From Chiloscyllium plagiosum (Eukaryota), in assembly GCF_004010195.1 (NCBI RefSeq), contig NC_057717.1, positions 105,274,696 to 105,338,695 on the forward strand: 64,000 nt of DNA. Reading direction: 5' to 3'. The number at the start of each line of letters is the position of its first letter. The first letter of the stretch is position 1. The notes beneath the pieces are model-generated. The model searched no databases. It saw only the letters and a program-made list of their open reading frames with translations, and was not told the origin of the DNA. Shown piece after piece: positions 3,470 to 54,290 of the stretch. The position numbers and the translations under genes were made by a program.

Positions 3470-4280
3470 TTAACACACTCACGTTTACCAGTTATGCTGC
3501 AGGAGAACAGCCTTTGGAAAAAGCCTTTTTTAAAAATCGGAATCGGTAAGAAAATTGCACTTTAAAAACCCAACACCAACAACCTTGGATTAAGATTTTT
3601 GGGAATTACCCAACAAGTATCCAGGGAAAATGTCGACAAGCACAAACGAGAGGATTGTCTCCAAGGTTTAAAGAATGGACGGGCAGTTGGCTCTGAACAA
3701 ACAGTAAAAAACCGTTAGCGCCGATGGCGCGCGGGCTATCAGTTGGGAACGAGAGCTGCGCGTGCGCGGAAGCGGGCTGTCAGCTGAATGCGGGAGCAGA
3801 GCGTGCCCGAGGGAGCGGGCTGACAGTTGGGGACGGGAGGTGCGCGCGCCCGAGGGGGTGGGCTGACCGTTGGGGACATGATGTGCGCGTGCCCGAGGGA
3901 GCGGACTGGCCGTTGGGGACTGGATGTGCGCGTGGCCGAGGGAGCGGACTGGTCGTTGGAGGTGCGCGTGCCCGAGGGGGTGGGCTGACCGTTGGGGACT
4001 GGATGTGCGCGTGCCCGAGGGAGCGGGCTGACCGTTGGGGACGGGAGTGCGCGTGCCCGGGGGAGCGGGCTGACCGTTGGGGACTGGAGGTGCGCGTGCC
4101 CGAGGGAGCGGGCTGACCGTTGGGGACGGGGATGCGCGTGCCCGATGGAGCGGGCTGACAGCTGGGGACGGGAAGAGCGCGTGCGTGCGTTGGATACAAG
4201 GGCGATGAGAAGAAGCTGAGAGAGAGAAAGCGGCAATGAAAAGGTAGCCTGATCAGTTAAAGAAAGTCCTACTCGCAATG
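3470..4280 (-). promoter_or_regulatory. Candidate CpG-island promoter with putative minus-strand first-exon donor
   Basis: CpGs retained in a CpG-depleted window; NRF1-like TGCGCGTGCGC at ~3758; repeated MYB-type CCGTTR; acactcac at 3475-3482 reads AAC|GTGAGTGT on the minus strand. Confidence 0.45.
3718..4195. repeat. GC/CpG-rich minisatellite, ~43-bp unit, about 9 good and 2 degenerate units
   Basis: Unit gtgcccgagggagcgggctgaccgttggggactggatgtgcgc starts at 3803, 3846, 3889, 3932 (short unit), 3968, 4011, 4053, 4096, 4138. Confidence 0.95.
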
Positions 4281-5334
4281 TTTTTCATTTCCAGCAAACA
4301 GTGCATAGGCTTAATCTATATTAAGAAGCAAAACATCTGTTATCATTTTGATTGTAAGACACACCGCCACAGAGTAGAAATTGACATTTGTATGAAATTT
4401 GGAGCGATTTTTAAGATTTACATAATTGTAATAATGAGAAATATCTCATTGTAGTCTGGGTTAAAAGGTTTGTAGTCAAATTGGAAGAGGATTTCCAGAA
4501 TCCATTCAGGTGTGTTCTGAATCAATATGTCACTTGTTCAACCTGGAAGGATTGAGCCCTATATATGGTAAGTGATACCACGTCGATCAAACCAACAAAG
4601 ATGGAAGAAAAGCACGTTGGAAAATAGATTTTCAAAACCTATTTATGTACTTGGATATGAGATGTCACAGCAAAAGCGGTGAGGTCACATTGCATCTGAA
4701 CAGACTGATTAGGTCATAGAGAAGAAATTAAAACTATGGAAAAGACACAAGATTCGCCAGCATGACATGGAATGAGAGACAGAGACTAGTATAATTCAAA
4801 TGAGATTGAACAAATATTTTTTAAAAAGGATAGGAGGATTGCACTAAGAAGCCATTTGCTTGGACCAGCTACATTTCTACAAACGTATGAGGCTCAATGA
4901 ACATCCACTTCTAAGACTAAGGAAAATGTGTGTTTCTAAGGTATCCAGACCTTTTGGTTATATCACTCTCTGCTCCCAAGATAGGAAACAGTACAAATCA
5001 GAAGCAACATTTGCACAGCCCTCAGGCAAAATGTTTAATTTTAGATTTGTAAGCTAGCTGAGCCCTGCAGCAAATCTAAGTTGATATTTAATTTTAGTAT
5101 CAGTCAATCTATTTACGAAAAATATAGCTCAATGGTAGGATTGTGGTACTTTTAGTGCTAGCATCTGCTATTGCAGAATCACATTTTCCCTTGTTTAACA
5201 GTTACACAATTATATCTACTGGATACAGTTCAGTATTGCCTGGCATCTAATTGAGAATGTCATTTGATGCCATGAAATACCATAGAATCCCATCAGTACA
5301 GACAGAGGCCACTAATGGTGTTATTATCACTGAA

Positions 5335-6277
5335 TCCACCACTATCAACATGCTGGGAGGTTACCATTGATCCAAAACCGAACTGGACTCATCATAATTG
5401 ATGCATCAGGGTGGCTCAGTGGTTCGCATTGCTGCCTCACAGTGCCAGGGACTGGGTTCGATTCCAACTACGGGTGACTGTCTGTGTGGAGTTTGCATAT
5501 TCTCCCAGTGTCTGCATGGGTTTCCTTCGGGTGCTCCAGTTTCCTCCCACAATCCAAAGATGTGCAGGTTAGGTGAATTGGTCATACTAAATTGCCCATA
5601 ATGTTCAGGGATGTGTAGGTTAGTTGTATTAATCAGGGAAAATGCAGAGTAATAGGGTAGAGGACTGGGTCTGGATGGGTTACTCTTCAGAGGGTCGGTG
5701 TGGATTTGTTGGGCCAAATAGCCTGTTTCTACACAGTAAGGATTCTATGATTCATTCTATATAAAGTGGTTTCAAGAGCAGATAAGAGGCTAGGTATACC
5801 ACAGCTAGTAACTCACTTTCTGACACACCAAAGCCTGACACAAGGCACAAGTCAGGAGTGAGATGGAATACTGCCAACCTGCCTCGATGAGTGCAGCTCC
5901 ACAACACTCGAGAAGTTTGTCACCATCCAGGACAAAGCAGCCCACTTGATTGGCAACATATCCACAAGCATCCACTTCCTCCACCGCCGATGTTCAGTTG
6001 CAGTATTGTATGCTGAATGAAAGATTTACTGCAAAAATTTGCCAAAGATTCTTACATGGCACCTTCCAAGCCCATGACCATTTATAGCTAGAAGGACAAA
6101 TTTAGCAGATATATAGGACCATCACCACCTGGAAATTCCCCTCCAAGTACTCACCACCCCAACTCAAAAAGATAGCACCATTCCTTCACTGTCACTAGGT
6201 CAAACTCCTGAAATTGTATCCCTAAGGGTCTACATCCATTATGTGAACTGCAGTGGTTCAAGAAGGCAGCTCATTAC
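5335..6277 (+). mobile_element. L2/Crack-like (CR1-group) LINE 3' portion, interrupted by a SINE and then by an LTR; tail resumes at 9602-9688
   Basis: caagtcaggagtgagatggaatac..atccaggacaaagcagcccacttgattggc (QVRS.MEY..IQDKAAHLIG); tail gaaggcagctca|..|accaccttttcaag..aataaatgctggcc. Confidence 0.75.
5407..5752 (+). mobile_element. HE1-like tRNA-derived V-SINE (older copy)
   Basis: tRNA-like A/B boxes (gtggctcagtggtt, gggttcgattcc), V-domain gtgtggagtttgca..ccaaagatgtgcagg, CR1-like tail. Confidence 0.88.
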
Positions 6278-6401
6278 TGAAATAACTCCAGTGAAATATC
6301 CCATCACCAAGTCACCTTTTATTTACACATGGAGAGTCCTTGACACTGAACCAACTTCCTCAGAGCCAGCTCTCAGCATGAACAGACATTTAACAATCTT
6401 G

Positions 6402-7057
6402 ATTTTTTAATTTTATTAAACAGTACAAAATATAGTTAACAATAAACAGAAAGCAACAGTTCACAAAAAACAGTATATACAGGGAAAGGGCAGCAAAGCC
6501 AAACCCCAAACCCCACTGTTCAAACAGTTTTCAGGGAGATGAGGGCAAACCTCAAATCCCACTTCTATTCATCACAAAGATAACAGTCACAAACACATGC
6601 AAGACAGTGCAATCAAATGAGAAACAGTGCATAGAACACAGACCCAATGTAGTTATAAAAAAGACACCTGACCACACCATATACTGATTGGACCATCTTT
6701 GGTTAGCCTTCCTGAAGGACAGTCATTAACCTTCCTTTCTCTGGCCACCCTGCATACTGACTGGTGCTCCCCAGGTCTGCTTTCCTCAAGCTGGTCGTTG
6801 ACCACCCAGTTCCCAGTCGCCTCGCATATTGACCGGACTACCCTGGGCTACTTTCCTACAAGCTGGTTGTTGACCTTCCAGTCCCCGGCCGCCCTGTGTA
6901 CTGTCTGACCCTCCCCAGCCCACTTTCCTCCAGGTCGGATGTCAGCCATCAGCTCCTAGTCACCCCGCATACTAACCAAATCACCCCTGACCAGCTTTCC
7001 TACAGTTGGGCTGACGGCCTTCCAGTACCCGGCCGCCCGCATATTGACTGACCTTTT
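6402..7057 (-). mobile_element. Non-autonomous polyA-tailed element (type A) with internal degenerate repeats
   Basis: T-rich tail at left; core cagggagatgagggcaaacctcaaatccca shared with 7868-7897; no credible ORF. Confidence 0.6.
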
Positions 7058-7105
7058 AACATCATTGTTTATTTTATTTTTTTTTCTTTTAATGCTGTGT
7101 GATCA

Positions 7106-7730
7106 GACACTCTTGTTTATATTATTTAACCCCCACACTACCGCCTAACTGCGGTAGTGCTTATTTTTTCCCCAGAACCCATGTTGTGTATGTGCAGGTG
7201 TGAAACACAGTGAGAGACACAAAGTGCACGAATCTTTATTCAATTTCCACCACCAGGAAGATAGGAAAACACCCAAGTGGCCAGTGACAATCACTGCCCT
7301 TCACATGAAAGGGCAATACTGTGTGATCAAAACAGTGAAGGGGAGGGTAGGGACTAAATCAAAATAGANNNNNNNNNNNNNNNNNNNNNNNNNNNNNNNN
7401 NNNNNNNNNNNNNNNNNNNNNNNNNNNNNNNNCCAGGCCTAGGAGCAGACCCACGAGGAGGTCTTCAGACCTGCCCTCCTTCCTCCGTACCGGGTGCCCA
7501 AAGATCAGGAGCGTGGGACTGAAGTGCAGCCAAAAGCAGCGGAGGAGGTTTTTGAGAAAATCAAAAAGGGAGTGCAAACGCCCACACCCAATATACACGT
7601 GGTCCACGGACTCCACAGCACCACAGAACAAGCAGTTGGGCTAGGAGTCCGTGAACCACCGCAATCTGCGGTTGCAGGGGACTGCTGCGTGCACACCCTC
7701 CACCCCAGATCCCTGAGAGAAAGGGACATC
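7106..7730 (-). mobile_element. Tx1-like (L1 clade) LINE 3' end with ORF2 C-terminal Cys/His knuckle
   Basis: LRDLGWRV..CLFCGAVESVDHVYIGCGRLHSLFDFLKNLL..FSPTLLIFG..LLLGL; CpG-rich, so likely young. Confidence 0.85.
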
Positions 7731-7734
7731 CTTG

Positions 7735-9272
7735 TTTTTTTTTATTTTATTAAGCAAATTACAAACAGTTTACAAAAAACATTTACAGCTGTACACAAGA
7801 GCCAGCAATTTTACAAGGGAGAGGAGCAGCAAAGCTAGGCCCCAAACCCTACCATTCAACCATTTTACAGGGAGATGAGGACAAACCTCAAATCCCAGTT
7901 CCACATATGACAAGACAGTGACAATGACATTTATACATTAGACAATCCTGTTACATACAAAAGTGCAGACAATACAGACCCAGCAAGCCCCCGCCCCTCC
8001 CACCTTCCGACCACTCTAAGGCAGCCTGCCCCTACCCACCTTCCGGTTCTCGGTCCACCCCATGCCCCTTCCAGTTCTCGGTCCACCCTGGCACACCTTT
8101 CGGCCACCTCTAGGACAGCCCATCCCCTTCCCTGGGACGACAGCGAATCTCCAAGTTATTTTTGTTAATCAGGACCTCCTGATTGGGGTCTTCAAGCCCA
8201 GGCCAATCAGGGACCTTGTAGCACACAAATCCCCCCACCCTCCCCAGGGGACTGGGTCAGCTCCTCTTGTAGCTTTTCCTGTGACGTTTCCACCCCAGCT
8301 CCGGTCCCTCTGATGCGGACTCTGACACGGCCTGTACCGGACTGTAGTTCCTCTCCTTGTATCCGGAGCATCTCGAGAATTTTCTCCTCTTCCAGCAGTA
8401 ATGGTATCGAGGCTGCATCCATCTTAGACCCTGAGGTTTCCTCGACACCAGCCAGAGGGGAGAGCCCATGGTTTCTGACAGGCTATCTGGTTGTTGACAG
8501 GGGCCTAGTACGTTTTGCTCCTGCCCTGTTTGTGAGGGAACAGCTTTCAGGTGATCCACGTGTTGGTTCAGGACTGCCTCACTTTCCCCAAACTTTGTAA
8601 GTCACGGGACCTGACCTCACGGCAACCTCACCTCGTACCCATACAGAGGTGTTGCCATGGTTCTGGCACCAAACGTCATCCCCTCAATGAAATGGTCTCC
8701 CTCACTTCGAGGAGGCATGTGGCTGGCATTGGTGATCCTGCTGCTGTTTCACCCCAACAGCCCTCCCCCAGTTTGGGAAATATCAGGTTTAACCTGGGGC
8801 AGTGTCTTCTCCCCATCACCAACTCTGCTGGAACAATCCTGTCGTTGCGTTTGGGCTGGGCCCAGAATCGATCAGGAAATGGGACAGTTTGGTATCAAGT
8901 GGCACTGTAGGCTGCTGCTTTAATCCTGCCTTCAACATTTGGAACACTTTCCACCAGACCATTGGATGATGGTTGGCATGGAGTTGTCCTGATGAGGAAA
9001 ATGCCGTTTTCCCACAGAATGAGTGTATTCCCTGAGGTCAATGATGCTCCACTCTCTATGACTGATACTTCCTGGACTCTGTGTATCGTGAATGATGCTC
9101 ACAGCTTCTCCATCATTCTCATCCCTGAGTTTGCTGAATAAACTTTCTGCGCATCCAACCACTTAGTTCCTGGTCATTGTCAATGCCCATTGTGCCCATG
9201 GAAGGACCTGCATAATCAATGTGTAACCGAGCCATTCCCACAATGATGGGAGCTCAGCTGGTGGTAATTTTT
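7735..9272 (-). mobile_element. Chimeric unit: decayed Gypsy integrase (about 9265-8550), PPT, LTR remnant, type-A polyA tail
   Basis: My frameshifted minus-strand translation: RLHIDYAGPSMG..KWLD..ENGIFLIRTTPCQPSSNGLVE..LKAGLKQQ..LSHFL..PAELVMGRR..GDDVWCQNHG..SGPVTYKV..HVDHLKA; purine tract (cccccaccctcccc on +) at 8230-8245; LTR-like ctgattgg..ccaatcaggga at 8145-8227. Confidence 0.75.
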
Positions 9273-9279
9273 ATCCTTG

Positions 9280-9494
9280 GTACCCTGCGGCGCCCACCTC
9301 TCCCTGAACAACCCCAGGGTTTTGGTCGACACCGCGTGCTCCTTCTCCAAGGATACCCGGGCCCTAACGTAACCGCGGAAGAGGGGCAGGCAGTCGGCCT
9401 TAACGACCCCCTCCACGGCCCGCTGCCTGGACCTGTTGATGGCCAGTTTGGCCAGGCCCAGGAGCAGACCCACGAGGAGGTCTTCAGACCTGCC
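9280..9494 (-). mobile_element. Tx1-like ORF2 C-terminal fragment, same family as 7106-7730
   Basis: GRSEDLLVGLLLGLAKLAINRSRQRAVEG..LFRERWAPQG; overlap matches 7433-7474. Confidence 0.85.
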
Positions 9495-9734
9495 AACATC
9501 CTTGTTTATATCTATCAGCCAGGGCTCTCTGATTGGACTGGGTTTACAACCCCAATCAGGGAACTCCAATGGGTCCACCTAGCTGACCTCATTACACTAC
9601 AACGACCACCTTTTCAAGACCAACCAGGGATGGTCAATAAATGCTGGCCTAGTCAGCAATGCCCATGTCCCACATGAATAAATAAGCTAAAATATGGAAT
9701 ATTCACTTAGAACTGGTTGCAACACCAATTTCAT

Positions 9735-10442
9735 GTTGGACAGAGTGTTATGAAACTGACATTTATATGTATATAGTTTAATATACTTCACAACAAGTTT
9801 GTTGTGAAACTTGAAAGGATTCAGAAAATATTTACAAGGCTGTTGCCAGGTTTGGAGGGGTTGAGCTTTAGGGAGAGGCTAAATAGGCTATTTTTCCTGG
9901 AACATCAGAGGCTGAGGGATGACCTTATAGAGGTTTATAAAATTGAGGGACACAGATAGGGTAAATAGACAAGGTCTTTTCCCTGGGGTGGGGGAATCCA
10001 GAACTAGGGGGCATAGGTTTAGGGTGAGAGGGGAAAGATTTAAAAGGAATGTAAGGGACAACTTTTTCATGTAGAGGGGGGTGCTTGTATGGATTGAGCT
10101 GGTGGAGGCTGGTACAATTGCAACACTTAAAAGACATGTGGATGGATATATGAATAGGAAGAGTTTAGAGAGATATGGCAGAAGTGGGTAATGCAGATGC
10201 TGGAGATTAGAGTCAAGATTAGAGTGGTGCTGGAAAAGCACAGCAGGTCAGGCAGCATCCAAGGAGCAGAAAAATCGACAGTTTGGGCAATAGTCCTTCA
10301 TCAGGAATCTGATTAGAGGGATATGGGCCAAGTGCTGGCAAATGGGATTAGATTAATTTAGGATATCTGGTCGGCATAGACGAGTTGGGCCAAAGGATCT
10401 GTTTCCGCGTTGTACATCTCTATGAGTCTATGGCTCTATGAG
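9735..10442 (+). mobile_element. CR1 LINE 3' end with a Penelope-derived short insert at ~10178-10308
   Basis: gttgtgaaacttgaaagg.. to ctctatgagtctatg tail; insert has gatgctggagattag..ccttcatcaggaat. Confidence 0.85.
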
Positions 10443-10721
10443 TTTGAATTTGTGGAATTCTGGGTAAAGATTAAAGTTAATGTTTTTGAACTTGATGTTA
10501 GCTTTTTAAAGACTACAATTTCCACAATCCCAGGTGAGCAAATTTACCCAGAGCTCCTAAGGAATTTCCAGAGGGCTTAAGGACAGAACTTTTCAGATTT
10601 CTTCAGTCTGGGCTGAGAAGCCAAATTAGAACAATGCATGTATCAAGCTTTGAAGTGCTGAGAAGTCTTTCAAAAGAGTAAAATGTGTAAAGCAACATTC
10701 CTAAGAAAATGAGTTTAAAGT

Positions 10722-12055
10722 TAGAACATAGAACATAGAAGAATACAGCGCAGTACAGGCCCTGTGGCCCTCGATGTTGCGCCGATCCAAGCCCACCTAA
10801 CCTACACTAGCCCACTATTCTCCATATGCTTATCCAATGCCTGTTTAAATGCCCATAAAGAGGGAGAGTCCACCACTGCTACTGGCAGGGNNNNNNNNNN
10901 NNNNNNNNNNNNNNNNNNNNNNNNNNNNNNNNNNNNNNNNNNNNNNNNNNNNNNNNNNNNNNNNNNNNNNNNNNNNNNNNNNNNNNNNNNNNNNNNNNNN
11001 NNNNNNNNNNNNNNNNNNNNNNNNNNNNNNNNNNNNNNNNNNNNNNNNNNNNNNNNNNNNNNNNNNNNNNNNNNNNNNNNNNNNNNNNNNNNNNNNNNNN
11101 NNNNNNNNNNNNNNNNNNNNNNNNNNNNNNNNNNNNNNNNNNNNNNNNNNNNNNNNNNNNNNNNNNNNNNNNNNNNNNNNNNNNNNNNNNNNNNNNNNNN
11201 NNNNNNNNNNNNNNNNNNNNNNNNNNNNNNNNNNNNNNNNNNNNNNNNNNNNNNNNNNNNNNNNNNNNNNNNNNNNNNNNNNNNNNNNNNNNNNNNNNNN
11301 NNNNNNNNNNNNNNNNNNNNNNNNNNNNNNNNNNNNNNNNNNNNNNNNNNNNNNNNNNNNNNNNNNNNNNNNNNNNNNNNNNNNNNNNNNNNNNNNNNNN
11401 NNNNNNNNNNNNNNNNNNNNNNNNNNNNNNNNNNNNNNNNNNNNNNNNNNNNNNNNNNNNNNNNNNNNNNNNNNNNNNNNNNNNNNNNNNNNNNNNNNNN
11501 NNNNNNNNNNNNNNNNNNNNNNNNNNNNNNNNNNNNNNNNNNNNNNNNNNNNNNNNNNNNNNNNNNNNNNNNNNNNNNNNNNNNNNNNNNNNNNNNNNNN
11601 NNNNNNNNNNNNNNNNNNNNNNNNNNNNNNNNNNNNNNNNNNNAATGCCTTACTGAAATCCATTTACACCACATCAACTGCTTTATCCTCATCCACCTGT
11701 TTGGTCACCTTTTCAAAGAATTCAATAAGGTTTGTGAGGCACGACCTGCCCTTCACAAAACCATGCTGACTATCCTTGATCACATTATTCCTATCTAGAT
11801 GTGCATAAATCCTATCCCTTACAATTCTCTCTAAGACTTTGCCCACAACAGAAGTGAGACTCATCGGCCTATAGTTACTAGGGTTATCCTAGTACAACGG
11901 AACTACATTTGCTATCCTCCAGTCTTCTGGCACTATTCCTGTAGACAACGAGGACATAAAAATCAAGTCCAATGGCTCTGCAATCTCCTCCCTTGCTTCC
12001 CAGAGAATCCTAGGATAAATGCCATCAGGCCCAGGGGACTTATCTATTTTCACCC
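10722..12055 (-). mobile_element. Young CR1 LINE spanning an N-gap
   Basis: (agaacat)n tail at left; RT motifs SQHGFVKGRSCLTNLIEFF and VDVV.MDFSKA. Confidence 0.92.
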
Positions 12056-44357: not shown

Positions 44358-45430
44358 ATTGCATGTCACTCAGTGGATAGTGTCCTGCCAGCAGCATTGA
44401 AGTAATTTGCTGGACCAATACTGAAGTGCAGAACACCCTGTGGGTGGATTGAAAATGTGCTATAAGGGCTGTTAAAGGCTGGTACGTGTCATATACCAAT
44501 GTCCATTGACATGGGATGAGTGTGATCAGTGCCCATTGAGTGTGCCCTGAGATAGTGGTGCCCAAGGAAGCCATCGGAGCAGGCAACAATCTCAACCAAC
44601 CAAGCACCCATTCTGGTTTCCCAATTTCTAGTTTGTTGGGGCAAATGTGGTATGGTCACAACAAAATTATTGATGAGGTAAGTTTAGTCATCAACAAATG
44701 TCAATCACTGACAATTGGCAACTCACTGCTGCCTGGCGAGAATGTTACCACATTGCTTGTGGCAAGCATAAAACATGGAGTGAGATGATCTTAACATCAA
44801 GATGCACTTTGCCAAATTTCTTGCCTAATTCTGCCACACATCTCGCCATAGCCCTTGACACTCAATCCCTTTAAGATTCCACCCTATGTACTTTGTCAAT
44901 CACAATCTGTGTAGGTTTAGGGCACTGCAGGTTACTATTAATCCCTCCCACACACAAATTACTGTGTCTATGTACAATCATAATATAAATTTTTAAAATA
45001 ATTTTAATGTCATATCTGCTTTTCCTTTCTTGTCTGTGTGTAATGGATCCCTTTGGCTGGCTGCAATTTGTAGTTCCACTTCACATGTTTCAGAGATTTG
45101 AGCTAATCTTTTGATTGATGGCTGCAAGTCTTTTATCTGCTTAGTGGGCTTGTGATTGGCATTGTACCTTTCGTAATCTCATTGCTTGTACGGCCACTGT
45201 GAATTTGAATCCTGAACTTGTTTAAATTGGAGTTTACATCTTGGTCACTCTGCAGTTAAAACCATTGCCTTTATCAAAAATTATTGCCTCATCCTACTTC
45301 TGCAACCACTGTATGCTATCTCTTCTCCTGTATTCTCCACCTGTGGCCTTTAATATATCTTTCCCTCTGTCATGATTATAAGGAGGTCAGCATCATAGAA
45401 TATGAGTTCCCTGATTTGGGCTGTTAATCT

Positions 45431-45770
45431 GGGCGGCACGGTGGCACAGTGGGCGGCACGGTGGCACAGTGGTTAGCACTGTTGCCTCACAGCGCCGGAG
45501 ACCCGGGTTCAATTCCCGACTCAGGCGACTGACTGTATGGAGTTTGCAATTTCTCCCCACGTCTGCGTGGGTTTCCTCCGGGTGCTCCGGTTTCCTCCCA
45601 CAGTCCAAAGATGTGCAGGTCAGGTGAATTGGCCATGCTAAATTGCCCATAGTGTTAGGTAAGGGGTAAATGTAGGGGAATGGGTGGGTTGCGCTTCGGC
45701 GGGGCGGTGTGGACTTGTTGGGCCGAAGGGCCTGTTTCCACACTGTAATGTATTATAATCGAATCTAATT
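45431..45770 (+). mobile_element. Young HE1-like V-SINE with duplicated 20-bp 5' end
   Basis: gggcggcacggtggcacagt twice; TSD-like ttaatctg at 45424 and 45770. Confidence 0.92.
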
Positions 45771-45786
45771 TAATCTGGTCCAATCG

Positions 45787-46037
45787 TAGAATCATCATGT
45801 TTGGAAGCAGCCCATTTGTTCCAATGAGTCCACATTGAACCTCTGAAGAGCATCCCATCCAAGCCATGCCTCCTCATTCTCCCAACCCTATCCCTGTAAC
45901 CCCGCATTTCCCATGACTAATCCACCTAGCTTGTACATCTTTGGACTTTGGGAATAAAGTGGAGCACCCAGAGGAAACCCACACAGACATGGAGAGAATG
46001 TGCAAACTCCACACAGATAGTCACCCAAGGCTGGAAT
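45787..46037 (-). mobile_element. Older HE1-like V-SINE
   Basis: ggagcacccagaggaaacccacacagacatgg..tgcaaactccacacag. Confidence 0.85.
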
Positions 46038-48039
46038 GAGGGAACCTTGACTGACAGATATAAACGAGAGTGTCAGGGATTCTATTCATTCTGAGACCTG
46101 GCTCTGAGGAAGCTGGAACATCGTAAAGGAATTTCCATGTATAAATGAAGGATAATTTGGTAATGGGATACCAGCCGATGTGGAGTTTTTTCACCCTCTA
46201 TTCTACTCAATCTGAACTGGCAGAACCATTGGCTTCCTTTACCTCTGATTACTATGTGGTGGCTTATGTCTCTTGCTGGAAATGGCCATGATTGCTCTCT
46301 AAGTCAGTGGCTACTTCAGACAGTAAGTGGTCTCAAGTATATGAATTGACAATTTCAATAGAGAGGATTGAAAAAAAGTTGAATAAAATAGTAATCATCT
46401 GAGGCATGCCCATAAACTCACATCATATGCTGATCTCTCATATATGAATAGTGGTAAATGTATTTCTGTGACTCTTTCCATGGTCTACCCACACTGTGGT
46501 TTTGCCTGAAGGAAATGTATTTCTTTCCTGTTTGGGCTCTTGGGAATTGTACAATACATGGACTGTGTATAGTTCATCTTTATTTTTAATTGATTGCGAG
46601 AGATAGGCCAGGAAATCTTGAGAATTCATTTTTCTTTAAATTGTGCAATATAAAATAAAGATAAAGTTACTGTAATAACTCAGAGAAAGACAATTGGTGG
46701 TGAGTTTAACCTGAGAGTCACCACACATAAGGAAAGGGATGAGGTTGAGAAGGCAGGAGCTTTGTGGTTAGTTCAGCTGTTCAATTCCCACGTTGGCATT
46801 ATTCTGCATCACAAACCAGCCATCCAGCCAACTGAGCTAGTTAACCCCCAATTGTGTAATGAACTCCTTCATATCAACAGGAACCACTGAATCAGGTTGA
46901 TAGACCATTGATCAATGTATCATCAAAAAGAAAACCTCTCTCCCTCCTTGCTGCAGTGGAGTGTCAGCCACATTAATGTACTCATAACCTGAAATGTGAC
47001 GATAAAGGACTAAGAAGACAGATGTTATTCCATCATCTATAACAACTGAAACAGCAACTATATAAATTGATTCAACTAAATTTAAGAGCTCACCAAATGA
47101 GGAGTAACTGCGTTTAAATCATAATTTCACAATCCAACCTGATGAACTATCCCAATAAGTGGTACATTAACAGAAAATTGGTGAGTAGCACTGATTTGAG
47201 GAAACTGACTGAATTAAAACCGTCTATCGTGTTTTCTGCCATTCTTGAATTAAACTTTGGATGTTAGTTCATGTTCAGAATGTAATGCTCCAAATCACAT
47301 TTTCTCTTTTTAAACTAACAGAAATTACTTTGAGACAATACAATCATCATCATTTATTGTGCTGAAGCATTGAAATGCAATCAATGCAATCTCCGTTGGG
47401 ATTTTAACAAGTTAATCAACCTATTAAAAGACTAACTTTTAACTCCCTGATAGCTTTGGAAGCATGGCCTCTTAAATATAATTGTAGTTGCCCATAGATT
47501 TCAAGTGTTGACTATCGTCTTGCTGTTCTGAGGACTGAGAATCACAGAAGGTCATTTCCAAAGCATAGGTCTGCAGCATGCTATTAAAAGGAAAGGACCT
47601 TTGAGAGGAAGTATGCAAGAATTACTGCAGGGAAAGGCTTGCTCTACCTACATGTTTTGTTTGGATCAACAAGACCCACATGGTCACTGAGCTCTTTTTA
47701 AAGAACATTAATTCTGGCCATTTTCTATTCCATTGGGTGGACCTAAAACACCTATTCCATGGGTACGATCCTAAAACACAGTGGTATTGGAAACCTAACT
47801 ACATTGAAGGACCACATAATTACATAATTAATACGTACCTGTCTGCTTTAAAAGGCCCATTTAAAAATAGTGGTGGTGGGGGGGCAAGTTAGATTTGTAA
47901 TTTTAGTCATACAGTTACTGCATTATTTCTAGGATGGTATAGAGTCCAAAATTAGGGCTACTTAATGTTTGTAAATAAACTGAAAACAATTTATTAAATT
48001 TGCCCATCTTTGTGAATGTTACATTTTTAATATATAGAG

Positions 48040-53199: not shown

Positions 53200-54290
53200 T
53201 GGTTTCTGCCTCATCTTAGTGATATGCATGTCTCAATTTTTAATGCATAATCCAGACTTCCCAGTCATTTGCCCACCACCTTCAGGTAATCTGACTTATA
53301 ATATGTATGAAGAATCAGTCAGTGCACCTTCCAATTAATGCGGCTTCAATCTTGCCCCAATTTATTTTGGTTCCCGATACCAGTTTGAATTGGTCGCAGA
53401 TGCTCATGGTTGCACACACCAATCACGGATCTGAGCTGAAAACGATAATGTCATCTATGTACAGGCAAGGACTTGACCTGCAATCCACGACTGCTGGGAC
53501 AGTTATTGCCAGCAGCCGGAGCAGGGACTCCAGTGACCAGAGACTGGAGCAGGGAGCAGGGACTCCCCTCCCTCCCCCAAAAGGTCTGCTGTGGAAAGCC
53601 CTTTTAACCATTTTTTCTGACCTGTATAACGAAGGATTGTACCTAGGTACTCTACTTAAGATGGTGCTGTAAGTGGTGACTTATAAACTTTTCATTGTAC
53701 TTGTTTAAATACTTGTGACAAGAAAGCTAATTCAAGAAAGCAATTTCACTCTCAAGTCCCATCCTCCCCAATGGACTTGTCAAATGATCTCTACAATACA
53801 CAAACAAGGCAGGAGAGAGAGGGCAACCGTTCCTGGGTTTGAGTGGGAAGTATTTTGATTCCCATCCATTGAGGCTGCAGTACTGGTGTTTGTATAGAAC
53901 AGTCAGATCCAATTGTGGATTTCTTCCCAGAGCCCATTGCTGAGAACACATCCATCATGTAGGTGTACAATATTCTGTTAAAAGCCTTCTCCTGGTCCAG
54001 ATTAAAAGGCACCCCTTCCTGCTACAACTCCCCTTTCCCAACCCCTCCCCCCCCTCATTTTTCACATAGGTGATTGTATCCCTGAGTAGTGTGTGGCTGT
54101 CCAAGATCTTCATGCATGATACAGCACAGGTTTGGACAGGGTGAAGCACTGACCCCAGAGCACAGCCGATCTGGCTGGCAGTGACCTTGGACAGAATTTT
54201 GAAACCTGCATTCAGCAGTGAAATTGTCGCCAATTCCTAAGTTCCTCCTTCTCCTTTCTGCTTGTGATGATGTCCTCCCCTCATGAATCC
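53200..54290 (-). mobile_element. Old Tx1/L1-clade RT fragment
   Basis: ISLLNAGFKILSKV..LHPVQTCAV..LLRDTI; NLDQEKAFNRI; GCPLSPALFV; LYIDDIIVF. Confidence 0.82.

Follow-up and report, generated by a model that had tools for sequence, protein, structure and literature searches.

In the part of the survey by Kojima (2015; PMC4494074) on which we draw, families of the Tx1 clade of long interspersed nuclear elements (LINEs) are described that target transposons, among them long terminal repeat (LTR) retrotransposons, and that form tandem copies 'sandwiching a TSD', a target-site duplication, an arrangement ascribed there to sequential insertion. In crocodilians, Mariner-N4_AMi has a site that is used by both Tx1-Mar LINEs and SINEU, the TSD expected there being 16 bp, and a template switch is mentioned for SINEU; the same part also lists Tx1L/Tx1D, Keno, Kibi and Koshi, and discusses co-transcription with the target as a way to dispense with a promoter. 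Here we report a comparable system from a stretch of 64,000 nucleotides of the shark Chiloscyllium plagiosum (assembly GCF_004010195.1, contig NC_057717.1, positions 105,274,696 to 105,338,695 of the forward strand), referred to as the window in the following, in which a stack of insertions splits an LTR at 6278-9601. Very probably this stack, and similar ones throughout the genome, arise from a family of Tx1-clade LINEs whose target-primed reverse transcription is directed to a single short site in an older family of LTRs, a site shared by a short element with a poly(A) tail that is here termed type A.

The shark system resembles Tx1-Mar and SINEU, as far as these are treated in the cited part (PMC4494074), in that a Tx1-type LINE and non-autonomous partners use one site in another transposon with a TSD of the 16-bp class, and in that the partners are less strict than the best-targeted family. 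It differs in that its target is an LTR and not a Mariner, in that the partner is without a head derived from small nuclear RNA (snRNA), and in that the site lies at a TATA box and is used in sense orientation. Tx1-8_Crp and Tx1-4_AMi have LTR targets as in the shark, although the host lineage differs, and this comparison is by a single sentence of the source (PMC4494074) and not by site. A further likeness is found with Tx1L in Tx1D of Xenopus laevis, as both are site-specific insertions into a mobile element, and the ORF2 proteins (from open reading frame 2) are 41-57% identical over the C-terminal ~500 residues. The target in Xenopus, by contrast, is a DNA transposon of the piggyBac type and not an LTR as in the shark.

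In the initial annotation, the region 6278-9601 was taken for a split LTR with a same-orientation fill. This was confirmed: a short LTR-type repeat is cut into 6278-6402 and 9505-9601, the fill amounts to ~3.1 kb, and the LTR and every module of the fill read in sense on the minus strand. The features are the following, the last of them an empty copy of the same LTR located elsewhere in the window:

6278-6402, minus strand: R-U5 part of the split LTR, ending at the site word aacaatcttg (6392-6401) and including an AATAAA signal
6403-7057, minus strand: event 1, an old or divergent, 5'-truncated type A copy, whose A-rich tail (a T-run on the plus strand) begins at 6403
7058-7067: local copy of the target word, aacatcattg, with the local ..TTG variant
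7068-7115, minus strand: 3' extension of the Tx1 copy, with an A-rich tail, a 15-nt scrap of the Tx1 3' untranslated region (3'UTR; 7091-7105) and the foreign word gacactcttg (7106-7115)
7116-7724, minus strand: event 2, a 5'-truncated Tx1-family copy with the 3'UTR and its conserved hairpin (7117-7368), an N-run (7369-7432) and C-terminal ORF2 coding sequence (7433-7724)
7725-7734: local copy of the target word, of sequence gacatccttg
7735-8145, minus strand: 3' part of event 3, a young type A copy, truncated on its 5' side at 8145; it includes an AATAAA signal, and its poly(A) tail appears as a T-run at 7735
8146-8245, minus strand: second, related LTR, aligned with LTR right halves, comprising the site word aatctccaag (8146-8155), U3 (8156-8229) and polypurine tract (8230-8245, minus-strand reading)
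8246-9287, minus strand: 5'-truncated, low-copy 3' end of a Gypsy-like pol with broken integrase-like frames, e.g. RLHIDYAGP
9283-9494, minus strand: C-terminal ORF2 fragment of Tx1 with neither 3'UTR nor tail, frame GRSEDLLVGLLLGLAKLAINRSRQRAVEGV...RERWAPQG, compared with the Tx1 copies of locus L005
9495-9601, minus strand: target word aacatccttg (9495-9504) and, next to it, the U3 portion of the split LTR, in which TTTATAT (9505-9511) is a TATA box on the minus strand with a CCAAT motif upstream
45368-46193, minus strand: sister LTR copy with an empty site (46074-46058), interrupted elsewhere by unrelated SINE-like insertions (SINE, short interspersed nuclear element)

The junction motif is present at all six positions that had been annotated (6392, 7058, 7106, 7725, 9273 and 9495); the site word of the second LTR at 8146-8155 is an extra junction absent from that list. 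The claim that every one of these words is a copy of the target holds for 6392, 7058, 7725 and 9495, but not for the other two. The composite consisting of 7068-7115 and the adjoining Tx1 3' end (junction J3) is also found at L014 (92.6% identity over 7073-7368), L019 and L080, so that the word at 7106 was carried in with it and not made locally. Contigs of three public sequencing runs follow the pol sequence 9154-9287 and depart from the assembly only thereafter, which identifies 'atccttg' at 9273 as native Gypsy-like pol. Where five or six module insertions had been proposed, the window thus holds about three local ones in a single LTR, at 6403-7057, 7068-7724 (the Tx1 composite) and 7735-9494 (a chimera). 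The tail region of event 1 is ~77% identical to other type A copies, and its junction type, type A against the left LTR half (J1), was also seen at 7 other loci. In event 2, the reading frame PNCLFCG...GRSEDLLVGLLLGL is 49% identical to residues 1142-1212 of Xenopus Tx1 ORF2. The similarity of the three inserts to their own families increases toward the U3 side.

The sister LTR carries the motif site uninterrupted, as previously noted: it runs through gacactctcgtttatat at 46074-46058, and its break point reads gacactctcg/tttatatct. Within the window, the loose pattern RACANYNTTG has 17 matches where 16.4 are expected, and on the plus strand of 6278-9601 it has 5 against about 0.4 expected by our own arithmetic. 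Note that this pattern was set after the fact, so that the genome-wide data carry the weight. The words at 6392, 7058, 7725 and 9495 have a private ..TTG ending, and the genome-wide word has ..CTG. Tandem Repeats Finder returned 0 rows for 5000-11000, and the stack is therefore no simple tandem repeat.

Site preference was assessed across the 3.56-Gb genome with the Tx1 3'UTR (7117-7360), the type A tail and the left half of the LTR as queries. Each query returned more than 2,000 candidates; scoring was confined to the best 40 of them, and the sequence of 30 loci was read. The LTR left half was used alone, a choice that selects neither for nor against filled copies. Counting filled against empty sites, as had been suggested in the initial annotation, gave 10 filled exactly and in the same orientation and 21 empty among 31 sampled copies of the left half (30 loci). 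The insert is a Tx1 3' end in eight cases (L036, both copies of L039, L040, L044, L046, L056 and L058) and type A in L045, the window itself being the remaining one. The empty copies read on as ...CTGACACTCCTGTTTATATCTGTCAGCCAGGG, some with small deletions, and the filled ones are broken exactly past ..CTCCTG, or a variant of it, by an A-rich tail of the same orientation. With the window excluded, 9 of 30 copies are filled, each with a different tail or 3' start, and these represent independent events.

The reverse test yielded a consistent picture. An LTR half is located within 1.5 kb at 14 of the 29 Tx1-seeded and 12 of the 29 type-A-seeded loci (26 of 58), and all 26 show the order LTR-left, elements, LTR-right. 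Sixteen of 122 element 3' ends abut the left LTR half directly, none in the opposite orientation; the LTR alignment stops at the last base of ..CTCCTG in 11 of these and 1-17 bases earlier in 5. The tabulation of sequence next to element tails, likewise proposed in the initial annotation, produced a clear enrichment of the motif in this sample: with at most one mismatch, the core CTCCTGTT is present in the 75-nt flank of 72 of the 122 ends, compared to an average of 8.7 in shuffled flanks, 6.2 in random window pieces and 8 on the opposite strand. Among the Tx1 seed copies, 22 of 29 have it.

Clean single insertions with both LTR halves preserved show TSDs of 13-17 bp that include TTTAT(AT), with the variant of the respective locus on both sides. 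The target and individual duplications read as follows:

Target site, plus strand of the window: GACACTCCTGTTTATAT; in LTR sense: ATATAAACAGGAGTGTC
CACTCCTG: positions of the target, 5-12 nt from the presumed nick
TSD at L088: GACATTCCTGCTTATAT
TSD at L078: TGACATTCCTGTTCT
TSD at L066: ..CCCTGTTTCT
TSD at L022: ACACTCCTGTTTCT
TSD at L014: ATAyTGCTGTTTAT

As local variants recur on both sides of the inserts, the junction word belongs to the target and not to the terminus of an element. The latter possibility was considered and excluded, since empty LTR copies have the word once and the duplications carry locus-specific variants. The target had been put at ~10 bp; the duplicated stretch is longer, 13-17 bp with TTTAT(AT) included.

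An alternative is a DNA-level origin, by unequal crossing-over between junction words or by amplification of an LTR element that already held an insert. It could account for three Tx1 units with an identical 5' truncation point at L005 and for the recurrence of composite units at several loci. However, from one LTR copy to another the inserts are unlike in family and tail as well as in their 3' starts and 5' truncation points, the TSDs vary with the locus, and the array in the window mixes three different units. The outer flanks of 45 sampled LTR copies are unrelated, without mutual matches save for one overlapping pair from the same locus, and these copies consequently represent separate loci. 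We consider such an origin highly improbable.

The LINE partner has at least 2,444 candidate copies of its 3'UTR in the genome, those scored being 93-95% identical, and what remains of its coding sequence encodes the zinc-knuckle tail of a LINE ORF2. The stretch L092:3626-4000 is 51% identical (E = 2e-30) to residues 1120-1242 of the Xenopus 'Transposon TX1 149 kDa protein' (YTX2_XENLA, P0008) and gave no match to a Polypterus L1 ORF2. L030 matches Tx1 ORF2 residues 835-1172 with 41% identity (E = 9e-70) and L010 residues 795-897 with 57%, and the collinear match as a whole spans residues 795-1292, i.e. only the C-terminal part. In addition, the protein P0001 (622 residues) is 72% identical to the shark element and 41% identical to Tx1 ORF2 over 99% of its length. 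As judged from this ORF2 tail, the C-terminal ~500 residues, the LINE is Tx1-like. An APE-type endonuclease domain, PF03372, was detected in the Xenopus reference P0008 only. Two candidates for a full-length LINE were inspected: L091 (8 kb) has no long frame, and L092 was rejected as its 'open frame' of 2,083 residues turned out to be an N-run. In the public run X15, which is RNA only by guess, the read depth of the elements showed no excess over the flank, and no reads of the poly(A) single-cell run X22 aligned.

The end of the Tx1 3'UTR forms a conserved 10-bp hairpin, GCACUACCGC / GYGGUAGUGU, at 7131-7160 of the window (minus strand) and in 60 other copies, followed by GGGGGUUAAAUAA and the A-rich tail, with 9-14 nt between hairpin and tail. 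One of its pairs alternates between G-C (20 copies) and G-U (39), another between C-G (52) and U-G (6), an alternation compatible with base pairing of the sense RNA. The hairpin could be the feature recognized by the reverse transcriptase (RT); by eye, no such hairpin was seen in type A. Note that the Tx1 copies at the LTR sites of L040, L044, L046 and L058 are without the last 20-80 nt of the 3'UTR, hairpin included, and still end in an A-rich tail; alternative polyadenylation or internal priming may explain them. At the other end, the 5' truncation points of Tx1 cluster at ...cagacctgcc(ctccttcc) (L005:1380-2530, L089 and 9485-9494 of the window). The resemblance of this stretch to the target word (CCTCC/CTCCT) suggests a 5' joining guided by microhomology.

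Type A has at least 2,042 candidate copies, 94-97% identical among those scored. They are truncated at 260-410 nt or continue into degenerate ~60-bp repeats without an ORF, and homology between copies ceases about 410 nt from the tail (query position about 411). Type A shares the LTR site with Tx1, with TSDs of 14-17 bp in L066, L070, L078 and L088. It has what defines a SINE-like partner: no coding capacity, 5' truncations, a poly(A) or A-rich tail, and the target and TSD of the LINE. One copy, at L062:1750-2330, is located within a ~40-bp satellite (gggcctgtgttttatagtctg...) whose unit contains a look-alike of the target word.

The integrase-bearing stretch, which the initial annotation had regarded as a non-autonomous partner, was examined as the body of type A and rejected: type A homology stops at ~410 nt, and 8146-9287 consists of the second LTR word, U3, the polypurine tract and the end of pol. 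Short pieces of its integrase-like frames matched no Pfam family at E values up to 10. Read depth over the pol piece 8246-9287 exceeds that of the unique flank by a factor of about 1.5-7, and contigs run past 9287 into other sequence. A Gypsy-like transcript with a type A copy in its 3' LTR that ends at the type A poly(A) signal would give 7735-9287 exactly. At its far end, the pol sequence and the Tx1 fragment overlap by 5 nt, CCCTG (9283-9287), and contigs of 3 runs cease matching at 9287/9288; the joint with this fragment (9283-9494) is most simply read as the trace of a single reverse transcription that switched template, from the RNA containing pol to a Tx1 RNA. The module is thus better described as a chimera of read-through and template switching. 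In L1 elements, flanking DNA is taken along by 3' transduction when transcription reads through to a poly(A) site downstream, and chimeric retrocopies formed by template switching are joined at short microhomologies. Unlike these, the shark composites carry the R region of the target LTR, or an upstream Gypsy-like pol with U3, and in doing so re-create target words.

In the mechanism that we propose, the endonuclease of the element would set a first nick on the antisense strand of the LTR just after TTTAT(AT), and reverse transcription would be primed at the RNA's A-rich 3' end. Another nick, 13-17 bp away, would then leave a complete site on both ends of the insert. With a full copy on either side, arrays can build up: later insertions would re-use the site copies and generate head-to-tail arrays of 5'-truncated units, split by the word, TTTAT and a T-run, such as those at L005, L019 and L011. 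Type A, poly(A)-tailed and ORF-less, would use the same machinery less strictly. Composites that are copied as one piece would come about by template switching and by two kinds of read-through, either into the LTR R region as far as the LTR poly(A) site or from a Gypsy-like element upstream. The initial annotation had suggested in outline that a Tx1-clade LINE and a non-autonomous poly(A) partner target this LTR site, regenerate it as a TSD and build arrays, a proposal that is borne out by the occupancy of the site, the reverse test, the duplications and the Tx1-like ORF2.

Several observations speak against this interpretation and need to be considered here. The best-scoring copies that make up the sample lean toward young ones, and the fractions given above are therefore rough. 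By eye, 3 of 29 Tx1 seeds (L016, L018, L028) and about 11 of 29 type A seeds have unrelated flanks, and 7 of 29 Tx1 and 17 of 29 type A seeds failed the strict core test, although genuine LTR sites with a locally varied word are among them. Outside the LTR, arrays are found that have private junction words, namely at L011, where agccctatttct is repeated four times, at L084 (caattagactta), and at L015, L069 and L071, implying that the re-use of an existing junction or tail needs no LTR word. None of the Tx1 copies retrieved was full-length, and none reached the RT or the endonuclease domain. The tendency of younger copies to be nearer the U3 side was not significant, with 21 against 13 adjacent pairs (p = 0.23) and p = 0.07 for left versus right of the seed. 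In the window itself, the 64-base N-run 7369-7432 interrupts a Tx1 copy at a place that spans about 215 bases in other copies, and one contig of run X5 joins 8146 to a Tx1 body (9453), not to type A.

Part of this would be expected if there were no recognition of the LTR as such, and the endonuclease merely preferred T-rich or TTTAT stretches and earlier tails, with the LTR word being the commonest good match in the genome. The private words and the many unrelated type A flanks fit this explanation, as does the non-LTR satellite site of type A at L062, which resembles the word (CCTGTG(C/T)TTTT). Yet the core precedes the tail in 72 of 122 ends where 6-9 are expected, an excess amounting to more information than T-richness provides; the 16 direct LTR junctions all share one position and one orientation, and about a third of the sampled LTR copies are filled. 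We therefore judge this alternative improbable and retain insertion at a preferred LTR site. Its specificity is strong, not absolute, and less strict for type A, and an existing tail or junction seems to be a preferred landing place in itself.

The N-run and the X5 contig bear on a different alternative, that the stack in the window is partly an assembly artefact, with repeats collapsed or mis-ordered around the gap, while targeting across the genome is real. Among the longest contig pieces listed, beyond which there are 3,429 others, none spans the junctions specific to the window. On the other hand, both sides of the N-run are collinear with one Tx1 copy, and the private ..TTG variant shared by the four local junction words is as expected for an origin at one locus. 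As the pol piece is present in a few copies, the X5 contig need not represent the window locus. An artefact of this kind appears unlikely to us, and we read the stack as a product of successive insertions.

The LTR that carries the site has the order CCAAT, TATAAA, break point, ~100 nt of presumed R with AATAAA near its end, and a short U5 in sense direction. Its family has TG..CA ends and 5-bp TSDs (GCTTG in L060, CCTTC in L050), with near-matches in L053, L057 and L059; the TSD of the copy in the window is poor (ATTAC versus ACGAC). Four of 17 sampled copies (L035, L042, L047, L054) have in common an internal flank that opens with a TGG primer-binding-like word and an ORF led by ATG; database relatives of this ORF carry PNMA, Retrotrans_gag, zf-CCHC and RVP domains. 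This supports an assignment of the ORF as gag-pro of a retroelement, and together with the termini, the duplications and the shared flank it marks the repeat as a true LTR, likely of a Gypsy element. Searches for the protein of this element were less informative: a Pfam search of the gag-side frames gave one sub-threshold zinc-finger match only, a word-index search with the gag-side ORF was empty, and the leads from the Atlas were all under 0.9.

Three further observations concern the surroundings in the window. The split LTR sits within another common interspersed repeat, at 5860-6277 and 9602-9690 (...cagtggttcaagaaggcagctcattac and ...ccaaccagggatggtcaataaatgctggcctag..., respectively). A weak match of 31-38% identity to the RT region of Xenopus Tx1 ORF2 (residues 528-619) at 53920-54224 (minus strand) is a LINE remnant unrelated to the array, and 3750-4216 is a GC-rich tandem array with a periodicity of 43/85 bp (7 copies of an 89-nt unit).

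With respect to novelty, a literature search (Repbase reports were outside its scope) found neither this LTR target nor, for cartilaginous fishes, any target-specific Tx1 element described. The initial annotation had held the target to be undescribed, which stands in so far as this LTR site was not found in print, but the targeting of LTR retrotransposons by Tx1 elements is known already from the part of Kojima's survey used here (PMC4494074). The shark system is a new example of known Tx1 behavior, not a new kind. It does provide a well-documented case of a vertebrate LINE living inside another retroelement, with word, TSD length, occupancy and by-products (arrays, transductions and chimeras) defined. 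For annotators, this is a reason not to label such arrays as satellites or new composite families, and a 13-17 bp target of a presumed APE-type endonuclease may be of some interest for programmable insertion work.

In the LTR, the site falls between TATA box and transcript start, and the TSD includes the TATA box. This location offers a testable idea, namely that a site-specific LINE borrows promoter and terminator from its target. The duplication (ATATAAACAGGAGTGTC) copies the TATA box, and each unit comes to lie 10-15 nt past a TATA box that is either backed by U3 or duplicated, ahead of the LTR poly(A) signal. For the terminator half, the LTR poly(A) site is used, as evidenced by the 3'-transduced R segments that end 15-25 nt past AATAAA and carry an A-tail behind the Tx1 copies in L002, L027 and L039; the promoter half is only an idea. 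That the site was chosen for expression and not only for safety, which would make the LINE and its passenger promoter-less parasites of the LTR core promoter and terminator, is a tentative and rather doubtful proposal. If it were true, each insertion would also uncouple the R region of the LTR from its U3.

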